The translations under genes and the position numbers were made by a program. Below the pieces are notes generated by a model, which was not told the origin of the DNA, made no database searches, and saw only the letters and a program-made list of their open reading frames with translations. Positions 51,391 to 63,173 of a stretch of DNA of 64,000 bases are shown here, one piece after another. How positions within the stretch are numbered: position 1 is the first letter of the stretch; each line of letters starts with the position of its first letter. The stretch comes from an uncultured virus (IMG/VR IMGVR_UViG_3300036770_003021). Lineage: Duplodnaviria > Heunggongvirae > Uroviricota > Caudoviricetes. Location: positions 62,001 to 126,000 of IMG/VR virus record IMGVR_UViG_3300036770_003021. One strand, 5' to 3'.

Positions 51391-51777
51391 TGGTGGAGAT
51401 GGCGAGGAGTCGCACCCCGCGTCCATAAAAAATTATTACTGCCAGACTACACGCTTATATATTTTATATTGTTAGGGGTTAATAATGAAAAATATCTAAA
51501 AATATTACCCTTAAGATTTACTAATATCTTGACCATTTACGCAAATCAAATATTTGGTCCAGTCCAATAATTTACACCCAACACAAATATCAGACTTCAT
51601 TGTATTGAATGTGCAACAACTTAGGCTGCAAGGGCTACAACGTCATCGTAAGAGAAGTCATAGCTAACTACGTTATCTTCAGCAGTTAATGTTTCGATAG
51701 GTGTATTAAAGAGGCCAACTATCATCCTCTACGTGCCTAACAATAGATATTTATCTATGTCAAATCTACGCATCCCC
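51391..51777 (-). ncRNA. ssrA: tmRNA; tag (A)AEDNVVSYDFSYDDVVALAA at 51621-51683
   Basis: GGGGATG/CATCTCC-ACCA acceptor with G3-U; T-arm; resume context TTAACT-GCT; ALAA-stop end. Confidence 0.93.
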
Positions 51778-58935: not shown

Positions 58936-59014
58936 TGGTGGAGCCAGTGGGTAATGCTCCCACACGAATCGTCCGGTTAAAAGCCGGCTGCCCGTCTATT
59001 GTGGCTTTGACTCC
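58936..59014 (-). tRNA. tRNA-Lys(TTT)
   Basis: CCGG-CT-TTT-AA-CCGG, CCA. Confidence 0.85.
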
Positions 59015-59108
59015 ATAAATTGGTGGGTCTTTCCCTCTGTCACTCTTTAATCCCTAGGATTTCAACCCCGGCAAATATCGGTTACGAGTTACCGCTAGAC
59101 TTATAAAA

Positions 59109-59184
59109 TGGTGGAATCATCGGGATTTGAACCCGAATCACGATATTAAGAGTATCGTAGTCTAGCCAATTGACTTATGATTCC
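59109..59184 (-). tRNA. tRNA-Lys(CTT)
   Basis: CGATA-CT-CTT-AA-TATCG, CCA. Confidence 0.92.
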
Positions 59185-59226
59185 ATTATTAAAAATTTCT
59201 TCTTACATTGTCAACGAACTATAATC

Positions 59227-59254
59227 ATCTTACCACACTTTATAACTTCGTCAA
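59227..59254 (-). promoter_or_regulatory. sigma70-like internal promoter in tRNA array 2
   Basis: TTGACG-N10-GTGTGG-TAAGAT. Confidence 0.7.
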
Positions 59255-59272
59255 CAGCTTTTTAAAAAAACT

Positions 59273-60022
59273 TTAAACGTTACTTTGTTTCTTTGGATAT
59301 GGTTGAATTGACTTAATCAATCCACCCAATATTCTTTTACCATCACTAGAATTTTGTCCGGATAAAATATAAATGTACATATGTTTTCCAGTAGCAGTTC
59401 TTATTTCAAATGGACTATTAGGATTGGTTCTTGCATCATTTGCTGCATCTTTACCAGTTTCAAAACCATACTTCTTTATTTGTGGTAATCTATACACCCA
59501 CTTGTTTTCTTTTTTATCCCACAAACGTTTTGTATCTTTACTCTTGCCTAAATAAATTGCATTTGTTGCTTGATATATAGATCCAGTATGTCCCTGTCCA
59601 CTATCAGCCCGTGTAATAACAACCTTTAATTCGGGATAATCCTGTTTAATCTTTTTATTACCCAAACCAATTACATACGACGCCAAGTTGCTTAACTCAG
59701 GTATTTGTTTTGCCTCAGGTTTCAAATATAATCTCAATAACTCAAATACTTCATTCTTTTGCAATAAACTGTTGCCCTCTGCATCTACAGCTATTTCTTC
59801 ATAATCTTGTGGCTTGGTGGTTTGTCCATAAACAATCACTCCTACCATATCCACATTACCATCTGTCTTCTTGTACATCACACCATAATTAGCAGCCACC
59901 GCCGTAGGATATGTCTTTAAATAATGCTGCTTAATAAAATTCAATACTTCAGATTTACTCTTGGGTTCCAAATATACACTATCTTTCAAACCCTCCAATA
60001 TTAATTCTTTCAATTTAATCAT
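59273..60022 (-). CDS. Mom-like (GNAT-fold) DNA modification protein
   Basis: FIKQHY, ELLRLY, ADSGQGHTGSIYQATNAIYLG. Start moved to MIKLKEL (60022). Confidence 0.75.
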   Translation of the reverse strand: MIKLKELILEGLKDSVYLEPKSKSEVLNFIKQHYLKTYPTAVAANYGVMYKKTDGNVDMVGVIVYGQTTKPQDYEEIAVDAEGNSLLQKNEVFELLRLYLKPEAKQIPELSNLASYVIGLGNKKIKQDYPELKVVITRADSGQGHTGSIYQATNAIYLGKSKDTKRLWDKKENKWVYRLPQIKKYGFETGKDAANDARTNPNSPFEIRTATGKHMYIYILSGQNSSDGKRILGGLIKSIQPYPKKQSNV

Positions 60023-60055
60023 ATGATATAAATATCTGCATGCATCGTCAAAAAA

Positions 60056-60131
60056 TGGTCCCAATTGTTGGTTCCGCCCCAACCTCTCAAGTTCTTCAGA
60101 CTTGCGCTTTCACTAGGTTAGCTTAACTGGG
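60056..60131 (-). tRNA. tRNA-Phe(GAA)
   Basis: CAAGT-CT-GAA-GA-ACTTG, CCA. Confidence 0.85.
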
Positions 60132-60232
60132 ATTATAAATCTATTGACAAGTCAAAGGAATCGAACCTTTTCGGAACAGAGTCGCCCGCTCCTTTACCAC
60201 GCCCTGCGCACTAGCACCTGTCAAAAACTAAA

Positions 60233-60333
60233 TTGTGTGGTTGGAATCGAACCAACGGCCCGTGCTTATTCACACTTTTACGGTGTCATTTACCATCATA
60301 GTGAGCACTGATCTACCCCTGAACTACACACAA
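60233..60333 (-). tRNA. tRNA-like gene with 37-nt expanded anticodon loop; identity undetermined
   Basis: Acceptor TTGTGTG/CACACAA, D-arm, GTGCT/AGCAC stem, T-arm GTTGG-TTCGATT-CCAAC. Confidence 0.65.
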
Positions 60334-60340
60334 TCTAAAA

Positions 60341-60727
60341 TTAAATTTTGTTTTTTGTTTTTTGCCATTTTTCTACACAATATTCGTGGTATTCTTTTTT
60401 GCAAATTTCACATCTACATTTATGATTTATATAACCAGATTTACCGTGTTTCCAAGATTCTCTATTAATTAAATAATCTTTGTTATCTAAACTTTTCTTC
60501 AAATGACACGGATAACATAATAATTGACATTTGTGTATTTCTCTTACAAAGACTTCTATATTTGTTGTAAACATAGAAGATATTTCATTCACTTTCGTTC
60601 TTGGATCTATATGGTCAAATTGTAAATCTTTTTCAGAATTACATTTACAACATTTACCTCCAAGCATTTCAAGTCCAAGTTGTTTTCTTTTTTTTCTATA
60701 GTTTTGTATATATTCTTTTGTAGGCAT
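60341..60727 (-). CDS. HNH endonuclease
   Basis: CCKC, LQFDHIDP, CQLLCYPCH, HG..GY..HKCRCEIC. Confidence 0.85.
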   Translation of the reverse strand: MPTKEYIQNYRKKRKQLGLEMLGGKCCKCNSEKDLQFDHIDPRTKVNEISSMFTTNIEVFVREIHKCQLLCYPCHLKKSLDNKDYLINRESWKHGKSGYINHKCRCEICKKEYHEYCVEKWQKTKNKI

Positions 60728-60807
60728 AAATTTCTCCTACAAATAAATATCATTGAATTAAACTAAAGTTACAAAAAGTTACAATGTTGTAATTGTTGTT
60801 AATAAAA

Positions 60808-60893
60808 TGGTGGGGTATGTAGGTAATGCTCCTACCCAGCCCGAAGGCAACGGTTTTACAGACCGTTCTGCGTCTTTATCAGTATAATACCCC
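60808..60893 (-). tRNA. tRNA-Tyr(GTA)
   Basis: ACGGT-CT-GTA-AA-ACCGT, variable arm, CCA. Confidence 0.87.
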
Positions 60894-61031
60894 AAAAAAT
60901 ATATAATGTATGATGAACAATGAAATTATTTAAATTTCTTAAGGCACTTTATGTTCATACTATTGCAATTTGATCAACTGCCTAACCCTCAATCAGCATA
61001 CTCCATACATCATATAAAACTATTGAAAGAG

Positions 61032-61154
61032 CTCCAGAGGAGGGTTTCGAACCCCCAACCCTGCGGTTAACTTTGGCCTTGTGAGATTTGCACTCTCTAT
61101 TAAATAATACTTTATGGCCCACAGCCGCATGCTCTACCATTGAGCTACTCTGGA
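61032..61154 (-). tRNA. tRNA-Asn(GTT) interrupted by a 51-nt insertion in the anticodon loop
   Basis: Canonical Asn body; removing 61072-61122 restores TGCGG-CT-GTT-AA-CCGCA. Confidence 0.8.
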
Positions 61155-61162
61155 ATTGAAAA

Positions 61163-61240
61163 TGGCTCCAGCCCTTGGCTCCGCCCCAAGCTCGACACGG
61201 TTTAACAGACCGCCGGTTACACTAAGTTTCCTTGACTGGA
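61163..61240 (-). tRNA. tRNA-Asn(GTT)
   Basis: GCGGT-CT-GTT-AA-ACCGT, CCA. Confidence 0.82.
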
Positions 61241-61384
61241 ATTAAAAATTAAATTTGAAAGTGTGGATTCTCTTACCACCACTTAGGGCGGACTGCCCAG
61301 TTCTGACTTCAACAGACTCTCTTTCAAAAAATGTTTACTGGATTTCACTATGCTTGTTCCACCTACTAACTATAACCTCGTCAG

Positions 61385-61414
61385 ATTATAACCTTCAATG
61401 TCTATCAGTGTCAA
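61385..61414 (-). promoter_or_regulatory. consensus sigma70 promoter inside array 2
   Basis: TTGACA-N18-TATAAT. Confidence 0.55.
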
Positions 61415-61431
61415 TACATTACTTACTACTT

Positions 61432-61508
61432 CAACTATTGATTCAGATTCGAACTGAATGACTACTGCATACAGCGCAGTTGCTTTACCAATTAAGCTAC
61501 GTTCGTTG
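61432..61508 (-). pseudogene. tRNA-like element with intact D, anticodon and T arms but disrupted acceptor stem
   Basis: TAGCTTAATTGGTAAAGC; ACTGC-GCTGTAT-GCAGT; TTCAG-TTCGAAT-CTGAA; no CCA. Confidence 0.6.
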
Positions 61509-61531
61509 CCTTCACCTAATGTATTTAAAAA

Positions 61532-62203
61532 TTATTTATATACTCTACCTTTAACATATCCGTTTGTCAAGTATGTTTGTAGTTGTTCTTTTTTAATTTT
61601 AAGATTTTTATTTGTTTCAGAATGATATACCCAACAAGTTCCATATTGGGAATTTTTTGCACCGGATTGTGCTACTTTTAGTTTTTCTCCGATTTTCTTT
61701 TTTGTATCTTCTTTATGTTTTTTACCGGTCCAATGAAAAGCATTTTGTTTCCATTTTTCCTTTAAAGATGTTGATACTTTCTGTTTCCATTCTTCAAATA
61801 ATCCTTTTTCAATTAAAAATTCTTTTATCTTATCTCCTGTCAACAAATTCTTTTTCCTAATCTCAATATTTTTATGATGTATATTTTTTCCAGATTCGTT
61901 TATATAAGAATAACCGCCATAACCACCTTCCATTATATTGTAAGTATTATTCGATTCAATAAATAATTGGTTTACAATTTCTCTTTCTTTGGAAAACATT
62001 TCTTCAGCGGTATCAAATATAAATAAAATTTCTTTAATAAAATTTTCTTCACCATATTTTTGTATTGCTCTTTTTAGAAGTTTTCCAGAACCCATATAAT
62101 TGTCCTGCAAATTTTTTGTTTTATGCATTCCAATGTAAATTTTTTGGTTCAATTTATTTGTAATCTTATATATCGTGTATTTATATTGAGCGTTCGTGTC
62201 CAT
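61532..62203 (-). CDS. GIY-YIG (Seg-like) homing endonuclease with NUMOD3-like motif
   Basis: TIYKITN...YIGMH, YMGSG, YNI..GG, GKKHKEDTKKKI. Start moved to MDTNAQ (62203). Confidence 0.9.
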   Translation of the reverse strand: MDTNAQYKYTIYKITNKLNQKIYIGMHKTKNLQDNYMGSGKLLKRAIQKYGEENFIKEILFIFDTAEEMFSKEREIVNQLFIESNNTYNIMEGGYGGYSYINESGKNIHHKNIEIRKKNLLTGDKIKEFLIEKGLFEEWKQKVSTSLKEKWKQNAFHWTGKKHKEDTKKKIGEKLKVAQSGAKNSQYGTCWVYHSETNKNLKIKKEQLQTYLTNGYVKGRVYK

Positions 62204-62252
62204 AATAATAAATATAGACACGAACTCAAATAATATTATTTTTTTTGAAATG

Positions 62253-62327
62253 CATCCACCGTAAGAATCGAACTTACCCACGGGCTTTTGGAGAGCCTGT
62301 CGCCTAATCCTTGGAACATTGGCGGAT
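62253..62327 (-). tRNA. tRNA-Trp(CCA)
   Basis: GGCT-CT-CCA-AA-AGCC; full CCA not encoded. Confidence 0.8.
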
Positions 62328-62337
62328 ATACTATAAA

Positions 62338-62414
62338 TGGCAGTCGCATTGGGATTTGAACCCTATTCTCCATCTTGAGAGGATGGTGTCCTATCACACA
62401 TAGACGATGCGACC
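62338..62414 (-). tRNA. tRNA-Glu(CTC)
   Basis: CCATC-CT-CTC-AA-GATGG, CCA. Confidence 0.88.
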
Positions 62415-62519
62415 GTTAAATATTGTGACGAGATTACCCCAGTAGGAATTACCCGGCATGCAAGGGCTCCTTCAATCTTTTGGGTTTAAGTCTCTTTGTT
62501 GCCCTCGTCACTTTTAAAA

Positions 62520-62597
62520 TGGTAGCCCCACGGGGAATTGAACCCACGATTTGTAGATTGAAAGTCTACCGTCCTATACCCATTAGACGATGAGGCC
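62520..62597 (-). tRNA. tRNA-Glu(TTC)
   Basis: GTAGA-CT-TTC-AA-TCTAC, CCA. Confidence 0.9.
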
Positions 62598-62608
62598 ATT
62601 ATATAAAT

Positions 62609-62686
62609 TGGTGCTTCAGTGAGGATTCGAACCCCAAACTCAACGTTCGTAGCGTTGCGTGATAAATCCATTTTCACCACCGAAGC
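62609..62686 (-). tRNA. tRNA-Arg(ACG)
   Basis: CAACG-CT-ACG-AA-CGTTG, CCA. Confidence 0.9.
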
Positions 62687-62692
62687 ATAAAT

Positions 62693-62768
62693 TGGTTACC
62701 CCACTTGGATTTTCACCAAGGTTGATGTCTCAGAGAACACATCCGTCCTAAACCTAGACGATAGGGTA
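62693..62768 (-). tRNA. Glu-type tRNA with 10-nt anticodon loop
   Basis: D-arm CGTCTAG..AGGACG as in the Glu tRNAs; GATGT-GTTCTCTGAG-ACATC; CCA. Confidence 0.6.
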
Positions 62769-62776
62769 ATTAAAAT

Positions 62777-62852
62777 TGGGGTGAATAAGGAGATTTGCAC
62801 TCCCTTTGATTGCTTCACAGGCAATGCTCTTACTACATAGAGGATATTCACC
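62777..62852 (-). tRNA. tRNA-His(GTG)
   Basis: ATTGC-CT-GTG-AA-GCAAT, G-1/C73, CCA. Confidence 0.87.
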
Positions 62853-62864
62853 ATTACTATAAGC

Positions 62865-62946
62865 TGGAGCCGTTGACAGGATTCGAACCTGCGATGATTT
62901 TCCAGTTTACAAAACTGGTGTTTTCAACCACTCAACTCACAACGGC
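62865..62946 (-). tRNA. tRNA-Thr(TGT)
   Basis: CCAGT-TT-TGT-AA-ACTGG, CCA. Confidence 0.87.
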
Positions 62947-62959
62947 GTTAAATTTTCTT

Positions 62960-63173
62960 TACTTCAACATTCACAGTAATCACCTCAGTAATACTGTCAT
63001 CGCCCTATGGGTTCTGTATTCCAGCATAACACCCACGGACCAATCAATTGATTTTCCCAGACTTTACCCTATCGTCAATTTCTTGACTCACTGGAGGAGG
63101 TTCAACAGATGGAGTTTCAAACCTTCCTTACTCTTTATTCAGTCTATCACAGCTTTCGCCATTGTCAACTGAC
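62960..63173 (-). ncRNA. unidentified structured RNA (~210 nt) at the head of array 2
   Basis: GNRA hairpins ATGGC-GAAA-GCTGT and GTCAA-GAAA-TTGAC; TCAGTT/GACTGA; TGGGT/ACCCA. Confidence 0.5.

Follow-up and report, generated by a model that had tools for sequence, protein, structure and literature searches.

We examined a 64,000-nucleotide (nt) stretch of DNA (the window) from an uncultured virus, bases 62001-126000 of the 134-kb IMG/VR record IMGVR_UViG_3300036770_003021, for which completeness is estimated at ~48%. Pfam matches identify a T4-like myovirus (gp23 capsid, gp19, gp15, gp25, gp32, a RecA/UvsX-like protein, ribonucleotide reductase and a T4-type terminase), and the standard genetic code fits. 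A tRNA array and a tmRNA lie on the minus strand between 51.4 and 63 kb (18 tRNAs by ARAGORN, 24 by Rfam), interspersed with homing-endonuclease-like open reading frames (ORFs) recognised by Pfam and PHROG. Within this array lies a tRNA-Asn(GUU) gene whose anticodon loop is interrupted by a 51-nt insert that related phages either carry almost unchanged or lack exactly (Table 1).

The body of the gene is that of an ordinary tRNA. Rfam's tRNA model (RF00005) matches it end to end at 61154..61032 on the minus strand (52.5 bits, E 4.5e-9, model positions 1-71), leaving 54 loop bases unaligned. ARAGORN misses the gene unless introns are allowed, in which case it reports tRNA-Asn(gtt), i(34,51), with a 51-nt intron. 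A preliminary description, made from the letters alone, had placed a 51-nt insertion in the anticodon loop of a canonical tRNA-Asn; insert-less alleles confirm that exact length, and by comparison with them removal of the insert restores the loop CT-GTT-AA. The GT direct repeat described at its bounds is real, with an ambiguous GT at the end of the 5' exon (61121-61122), so that the junction can shift by 2 nt among three equivalent registers (33/34 to 35/36). In the minimum-energy fold the cloverleaf is kept and the insert forms a domain of its own, comprising the GGCC/GGCC closure noted earlier, a weak AU hairpin and a second hairpin of 4 bp whose loop, in the register GAGA-GTGCAAA-TCTC, has 7 nt. 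The reported likeness of this hairpin to a tRNA-His T arm is real. In the alternative register, the insert shares 13 identical bases with that arm of the phage tRNA-His (62777-62851), GAGAG-TGCAAAT-CTCAC against GGGAG-TGCAAAT-CTCCT, with the same 7-nt loop, and a C>T variant at 61081 retains a G-U pair in it. The folding energy of the insert alone is unexceptional (z -1.49), and as its helices are otherwise invariant in the alleles, covariation is informative neither for nor against them. A promoter inside the insert was considered and dropped, the matches reaching only 9 of 12 consensus positions on the opposite strand.

Table 1. Features at the interrupted tRNA-Asn locus and related genes (window positions unless another record is named)
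Feature	Position	Strand	Basis and remarks
tRNA-Asn(GUU), anticodon loop interrupted	61032..61154	-	Rfam tRNA; ARAGORN with introns; allele without encoded CCA
5' exon	61121..61154	-	Acceptor, D arm, 5' anticodon stem, loop C-U-G-U (rightmost register); alignment with insert-less alleles, RNA joint at 61121
51-nt insert (putative intron)	61070..61120 (rightmost register; equally 61072-61122)	-	Precisely absent in L005, L006, L013, L016, L104
3' exon	61032..61069	-	Loop U-A-A, 3' anticodon stem, variable loop, T arm, acceptor, discriminator G
GGCC/GGCC closing helix, 5' strand	61116..61119	-	Minimum-energy folds; invariant in 7 alleles
GGCC/GGCC closing helix, 3' strand	61075..61078	-	Minimum-energy folds; invariant in 7 alleles
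T-arm-like hairpin in insert	61081..61097	-	Likeness to phage tRNA-His T arm
Neighbouring tRNA-Asn-like gene	61162..61240	-	Anticodon GUU, loop CUGUUAA, T loop GGCGGAG, encoded GCCA end; cloverleaf fold
Phe-like (GAA) gene, 30-nt insert after loop base 32	60232..60333	-	Rfam tRNA 41.1 bits; ARAGORN Phe gaa i(33,30)
Lys(CUU) gene, 35-nt insert at 35/36 or 36/37	L195:832-940 (G001 280832-280943)		Rfam tRNA 55.1 bits
GIY-YIG homing endonuclease, T4 SegB homologue	61535..62281	-	PHROG 314 E 3.3e-44; weak Pfam GIY-YIG match
Small HNH homing-endonuclease-like gene	60344..60727	-	PHROG 4234 E 2.4e-25; between both interrupted tRNA-type genes
Promoter-like TTGACA-18-TATAAT, 12/12	61385..61414	-	Consensus scan only; upstream of both Asn genes
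tmRNA	51391-51777	-	Rfam 104.9 bits; end of tRNA array

Twenty-six bases of the 5' exon, searched against IMG/VR, found 18 loci. Thirteen carry the 51-nt insert, four (L005, L006, L013 and L016) have identical exons and the plain loop CTGTTAA, and the remaining one is a more distant insert-less tRNA-Asn; insert-less alleles are known for at least two exon types, that of the window and L104. When metagenomes, whose contigs partly coincide with those of IMG/VR, were scanned with a pattern that fixed the insert boundaries and left 25-55 interior bases free, all 19 loci recovered shared one 51-nt interior. Matches to the boundary or intron-core patterns fell at the tRNA-Asn site in 33 of 33 cases; a broader insert-less pattern describes a generic bacterial-type tRNA-Asn, and among the matches listed for it 4 of 119 loci belong to the gene family. 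That family comprises seven distinct insert-bearing and three insert-less sequences. Among the seven, variation is confined to 2 of the 51 columns of the insert but affects 16 of the 73 in the exons (Fisher p 0.0045). The four cloverleaf helices are 100% paired in all ten alleles, the seven with insert included. Five tRNA pairs have changed on both sides, the T stem and anticodon stem being preserved through such double changes, and the covariation score was reached by none of 500 shuffles.

The same interrupted gene is present in a 296-kb relative rated 100% complete (G001), and the group as a whole is a large (~300 kb) T4-like freshwater lineage. An alignment of G000 with G001 covers 33% of G000 at a mean identity of 75%, whereas the Asn gene is 99.2% identical. 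Among 50,697 GenBank phage records searched with 60000-62300 for cultured relatives, the endonuclease gene alone was matched; neither the tRNA nor the insert was.

Twenty-four public sequencing runs contain part of 59000-63000, 22 of them recorded as RNA, and we aligned contigs of four (X1-X4). Contigs of X2 (depth 47), X3 (depth 470) and X4 (depth 6.6) carry a joint 61069>61121 that skips exactly 51 nt (and may shift by 2), while contigs of neighbouring ORFs have depths of ~2-10 in the same RNA comparison. The joined contig of X2 and X3 continues into 61326-61463, where the only listed differences lie at 61370 and 61393 (the piece table of X3 gives 2 other letters). Of 30 DNA loci with that flank, three (L043, L058 and L060) are marked by exactly these two differences, and each of them has the insert; over the same flank the four loci without insert show 4-13 differences. 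All 7 IMG/VR contigs whose upstream Asn gene is of the L043 type have the insert in the interrupted gene. An exact joint of the two exons, for which the preliminary description had proposed to look, is seen in RNA contigs of three runs and gives moderate support for splicing. It is suggestive but neither proof nor decisive, because insert-less DNA alleles occur in related phages.

At 51 nt the insert is far smaller than a group I core (roughly 200 nt or more), for which there was also no Rfam match, and the same two grounds rule out a group II intron or ribozyme; no model of a small self-cleaving ribozyme (hammerhead, twister, pistol, hatchet and others) matched either. A bulge-helix-bulge (BHB) intron has two 3-nt bulges around a 4-bp helix, which set both splice sites. 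Here the fold has helices of 2 and 4 bp separated by a 3x2 internal loop, and no register puts both junctions in 3-nt bulges. Nor does the insert behave as a repeated mobile DNA element (miniature inverted-repeat, repetitive extragenic palindromic or IS200/605-derived), with one copy each in G000 and G001 and the 2-nt GT as the only candidate duplication; BLAST of all three inserts of this kind found in G001 (see below) against both genomes returned self hits and chance AT-rich words only. The complete relative does encode candidate RNA-joining functions: a T4-type RNA ligase 1 (PF09511 57.7 bits, phrog_562) and two ORFs that overlap where they meet, for a polynucleotide kinase and, immediately after it, a phosphoesterase (phrog_505, phrog_547). 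It also encodes a 2H phosphoesterase and a macro domain protein. A fungal-type Tpt1 pathway was set aside, as its sole match fell below the cut-off (16 bits; E 0.05) with no PDB relative. The 2H phosphoesterase was likewise not used as evidence for a splicing enzyme, since it could equally be Acb1-like.

A homologue of T4 SegB (37% identity over its length, E 2e-38) lies ~380 nt upstream of the interrupted gene. GIY-YIG or HNH genes occur within 1.5 kb at 9 of 14 insert-bearing loci against 0 of 4 insert-less ones, a difference that is only suggestive, given that the loci are related; the upstream flank is shorter than 300 nt in 2 of the 14 and 1 of the 4. The SegB-like gene ends ~10 nt before the interrupted gene in L011, L015 and L017, and an HNH gene ends ~35 nt before it in L012 and L019; the HNH gene of the window is missing from one X3 RNA contig (joint 60326>60804). 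A free-standing endonuclease gene thus adjoins a putative intron without an endonuclease gene of its own, the arrangement of trans or collaborative homing. The T4 segB gene sits in the T4 tRNA cluster (annotation NC_000866), and the description of the enzyme states that it prefers a site in a tRNA-Asn gene, that it recognises the motif GGTTCRANTCC ... CCAR and that flanking tRNA markers are inherited at near 100% (PMC2330249). A SegB-type site here would comprise the T arm and CCA, not the insert. The Asn allele of the window has no encoded CCA and departs from the motif by one base. More widely, 6 of 7 Asn alleles beside a SegB-like gene lack an encoded CCA and 4 of 5 without such a gene nearby have one, and all insert-bearing Asn alleles lack the T of the motif's TCC. 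These 3'-end changes appear consistent with self-immunity to a SegB-type site, the loci being related and the counts small. The 99.2% identity of the Asn gene against ~75% elsewhere fits a recent horizontal spread of the cassette.

As for the source of the exons, 14 genome contigs, every one from Verrucomicrobiota, match the initial 45 bases of the insert-less gene without a difference, and the T stems GTAGG/CCTAC and GAAGG/CCTTC of Verrucomicrobiota tRNA-Asn recur in phage alleles. By these matches the tRNA is host-like, and Verrucomicrobiota are a lead to the host. The host is bacterial, because the phage encodes a tmRNA; G001 also encodes one. In the genome collection the insert core occurs only on a 2.9-kb contig of a Crocinitomicaceae metagenome-assembled genome with the same phage tRNA neighbours.

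The Asn gene is one of three interrupted tRNA-type genes in G001, all of them in the anticodon loop: Asn with 51 nt, Phe-like with 30 nt and Lys-CUU with 35 nt. The preliminary description had missed the two others, as it had the homing-endonuclease locus around the gene. The 'spliced' loop of the Phe-like gene would have a U at position 37. All nine IMG/VR matches to this gene have the insert, an insert-less allele was not found among them, and one (L198) has changed its 'anticodon' from GAA to GAU; changes in the acceptor stem are compensated. The gene, whose insert is also kept in RNA contigs, looks more like a stable tRNA-derived RNA (compare T4 rnaC and rnaD) than an intron-bearing tRNA. 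No other IMG/VR contig matched the Lys-CUU 3' exon or its intron core. A pattern of insert lengths in multiples of three (51, 30, 48, 54) was abandoned, as the 35-nt Lys insert breaks it. Next to the interrupted Asn gene, the uninterrupted but divergent Asn tRNA proposed in the preliminary description is only in part substantiated. It folds as a cloverleaf with the loop CUGUUAA, and at its position in relatives ARAGORN does call tRNA-Asn(gtt), there with a T loop that is non-standard; in the window it is called neither by ARAGORN nor by Rfam at E<=10, and its folding energy is ordinary (z +0.48).

We put at about even the chance that the insert is a protein-spliced mini-intron of the kind described in Lak phages, situated within a homing cassette. 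The insert would fold as a separate small domain, with a 4-bp closing helix and the T-arm-like hairpin, and so leave the cloverleaf intact. A phage or host endoribonuclease would excise it while the tRNA body keeps both halves together, and the phage's own enzymes of T4 type (polynucleotide kinase, phosphoesterase and RNA ligase 1) would then heal the exon ends and seal them. The interrupted gene would travel in a homing cassette beside the SegB-like GIY-YIG endonuclease (or an HNH enzyme in some relatives); such a cassette would spread it, which could explain its near-identity in phages that are ~75% identical. Here we infer, rather than observe, splicing as the source of the joined RNA, the identity of the acting enzymes and the homing spread. 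The preliminary description had offered a protein-spliced intron beside an anticodon-masked reserve tRNA and a nuclease decoy. The first is the best supported of the three, by the exact presence and absence of the insert, the kept cloverleaf, the RNA joint and the heal-and-seal genes of G001; no cutting enzyme or mechanism was found, and the RNA joint could still come from an allele without the insert. A wider proposal is more tentative: T4-like freshwater phages may run a tRNA splicing pathway of their own, in which an endoribonuclease together with kinase, phosphoesterase and ligase 1 acts on structured mini-introns at several loop positions, tRNA-Asn maturation depends on the phage, and a SegB-type cassette provides the spread.

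Several observations weigh against splicing. Rfam, scanned over 59900-61600, returned no intron or ribozyme family at E<=10, leaving the insert without a recognised mechanism. EndA (PF01974) was found in none of five phage records, the complete G001 among them, a result which together with the length, the fold and the missing Rfam match bears out the earlier claim that the insert is neither a group I nor a BHB intron. RtcB (PF01139) was also absent from all five; of the ligases and endonucleases that the preliminary description suggested searching for, a T4-type RNA ligase 1 was found, in G001, along with the kinase and phosphoesterase. The RNA data are Logan contigs, not reads, from which rare variants are dropped; that no listed piece of X2-X4 spans the insert is for this reason not used as evidence. 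X2-X4 are riverine metatranscriptomes that may come from one sampling campaign, and 74 unread letters separate the joint from the flank by which its genotype is recognised. The joint could still derive from an insert-less allele, including an unsampled genotype on that flank. In X1, the insert-retaining form stands alone (61031-61168) at a depth of 9.6, equal to that of its flanks, which fits DNA carry-over or unspliced RNA. The Phe-like insert is kept in RNA contigs at depths of 36-110, with no 30-nt joint listed, so not every such insert is removed. By inspection, no boundary motif is common to the three inserts, whose places in the loop differ, so that one enzyme acting on all of them would have to recognise structure. 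A second Asn tRNA is present in most relatives. The double changes in the cloverleaf could have been imported from functional host-type genes, rather than selected in the interrupted gene, because the phage T-stem variants match Verrucomicrobiota T stems. Finally, homing drive could keep a useless insert in a dead gene unchanged, and it is because homing spread also offers a non-functional explanation of the insert's invariance that we do not rate splicing higher.

That explanation, taken as a whole, would make the insert an unspliced DNA insertion: a 51-bp passenger or scar in a homing hot spot, inactivating this copy of tRNA-Asn and spread by SegB-like drive, with Asn decoding left to the second Asn tRNA, which has a variant T loop, or to the host. 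We consider it on balance unlikely. The SegB homologue does adjoin the gene; T4 SegB prefers a tRNA-Asn site and confers near-100% inheritance on flanking tRNA markers (PMC2330249), and a 99.2%-identical gene is shared between genomes that are ~75% identical elsewhere. A second Asn(gtt) gene lies next to the interrupted one in 11 of 18 contigs, with a cloverleaf-foldable one in the window, and the missing EndA and RtcB, the exclusively retained form in X1 and T-stem variants that could come from host-type genes all sit well with an insert that is never removed. Such an insert does not, however, predict an exact 51-nt RNA joint at high depth whose flank, among known DNA, matches only insert-bearing genotypes. 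Nor does it predict a perfect cloverleaf without decay in 7 of 7 insert-bearing alleles. Inactivation does not require the anticodon loop, yet this is hit in all three G001 genes, and one copy per genome without terminal repeats is unlike mobile DNA.

It is less probable still, and in our view improbable, that the unspliced RNA is itself functional, its masked or extended anticodon arm serving as a decoy or sponge for anticodon nucleases or tRNA-binding factors, or the whole as a stable regulatory RNA like T4 species 1 and 2. tRNA-Asn is among the GUN-anticodon tRNAs attacked by colicin-E5-type nucleases, and the insert has a T-loop-like hairpin. The Phe-like gene, always with its insert, altered in its anticodon in L198 and unspliced in RNA contigs, conforms to such a role, as does T4 rnaC, likewise in such a genomic setting, whose enlarged middle is enclosed by an acceptor and T arm resembling those of tRNAs. 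For the Asn gene, though, alleles without insert exist and are ordinary tRNAs, whereas none was found for the Phe-like gene; the joined form is the abundant RNA in three runs, and no defence or counter-defence gene is tied to the Asn gene here. We regard as very improbable a further account in which the insert is a miniature tRNA-like module, cut by RNase P at its 5' side and by an endonuclease at its 3' side, the resulting 3'-OH and 5'-phosphate exon ends being joined by RNA ligase 1 without healing. The hairpin loop is indeed the same as the T loop of the phage tRNA-His and, by inspection, the GGCC helix read as an acceptor stem continuous with the hairpin would place its first base at the rightmost 5' junction. 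That 'acceptor' nevertheless has two mismatches and its predicted 3' cut falls 3 nt past the discriminator, not at the RNase Z position (both by inspection); the Phe-like and Lys inserts lack a T-loop-like hairpin, and no covariation supports any helix of the insert.

The array holds further unusual tRNA-type genes. A class of tRNAs with non-standard T loops (TGCGAGT, TGCAAAT, GGCGGAG/GGCGGAA, AGCATTA, GAGCGTT) has D loops without GG and usually an encoded CCA; members lie at 61162-61240, 60808-60893, 60059-60131 and 62777-62851 on the minus strand and in loci L002-L019, and they repeat the Asn, Phe and Tyr identities that canonical or interrupted copies already provide. Since the motif recognised by T4 SegB, GGTTCRANTCC, is the standard one, such T loops may represent an escape from tRNA-targeting homing endonucleases. 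L005, L006, L013, L015 and L017 have, ~350 nt downstream of the Asn gene, a tRNA-like gene that agrees with the Phe-like gene in its acceptor and T arm but contains a structured insert of 48 or 54 nt and a long additional region; its ARAGORN call, Gly(tcc/ccc), is doubtful. At 62693-62768 (minus strand), a gene conserved in at least 7 relatives has an oversized anticodon loop, read by ARAGORN as a 4-base CTCT or as Gln(ctg) with a 3-nt insert. A weak tRNA at 61433-61506 (minus strand; 34.9 bits, mismatched acceptor) falls in the deepest summed-contig bin of the aligned stretch (1086, X2) and is followed by the perfect TTGACA-18-TATAAT site at 61414-61385. Among other genes in these phages are two of the Mom DNA-modification family (59276-60082 on the minus strand and L023:10991-11761), one of them inside the tRNA array, and in G001 a TnpB-like ORF (L193:1879-3015; OrfB_IS605 and Cas12f-like TNB) and, within the second tRNA cluster, a PD-(D/E)XK endonuclease (L194:17768-18196; PF11645).

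Comparison with known systems brings out what a spliced mini-intron at this locus would share with each. The 'enigmatic' tRNA introns of Lak megaphages are short, do not vary between the genomes that carry them and are missing exactly from close relatives; as far as the available passages go, they resemble the Asn insert in being short phage tRNA inserts of no recognised intron class or mechanism (PMC6784885). The Asn insert, too, is a short one in the anticodon loop of a canonical phage tRNA gene, near-identical where present and exactly absent in relatives. It differs from the Lak cases, so far as the same passages describe them, in its T4-like freshwater ~300-kb lineage, standard code, other insert sequence and position 5' of or within the anticodon, and further in its joined RNA form, the covariation of its exons, the homing endonucleases nearby and the genes for RNA repair of the T4 type. 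In a search of the literature for short phage tRNA introns these were the only published case found, and the passages available from that source give no mechanism (PMC6784885). To T4 itself there are three kinds of likeness. Our SegB homologue, in a tRNA cluster and adjoining a tRNA-Asn gene, recalls T4 segB, with the difference that the T4 case, in the available passages, has no intron (PMC2330249) and that a SegB-type site would fall in the T arm and at the 3' end, away from the insert. The ligase 1, kinase and phosphoesterase genes of the complete relative recall T4 anticodon-loop repair. In that system the PrrC nuclease cuts the anticodon loop, after which Pnkp and RNA ligase 1 repair it, and the leftmost junction of the insert (33/34) is at the position where PrrC cuts tRNA-Lys. 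There a single break is rejoined and nothing is removed, whereas splicing of the Asn gene would take two cuts and discard 51 nt. T4 species 1 and 2 RNAs (rnaC and rnaD; NC_000866), stable products of the tRNA cluster in which an enlarged middle part accompanies an acceptor and T arm like those of a tRNA, are the best analogue of the Phe-like gene; the Asn gene, by contrast, is a complete canonical tRNA once its insert is removed, and has insert-less alleles. BHB introns are likewise short anticodon-loop inserts whose exons are held by the tRNA body, and a dependence on proteins is predicted here as well, but this insert has no bulge-helix-bulge, its phage records no EndA or RtcB (0 of 5 each) and its phage a bacterial host. 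Group I introns occur in the anticodon loops of bacterial tRNAs, and homing of the trans or collaborative type is known (PMC3984707 and PMC2790892); site and free-standing endonuclease beside an intron without one are shared with the Asn gene, while the 51-nt length, far short of a group I core, and the want of an Rfam match set it apart.

The locus adds to the Lak case a T4-like lineage, an RNA joint, exon covariation, a SegB context and candidate joining enzymes. With its alleles that have and lack the insert, a near-invariant insert and exons that vary yet always fold, it is also the better test case. If the insert proves not to be spliced, the locus still shows a tRNA-targeting homing endonuclease shaping the tRNA set of a phage. 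Bacteria and their viruses are not known to have tRNA introns other than self-splicing ones. Splicing, if confirmed, would add a second natural role to the one so far known for T4-type RNA ligase 1 and polynucleotide kinase, the repair of damage by host anticodon nucleases, and would amount to enzyme-dependent tRNA splicing outside archaea and eukaryotes.

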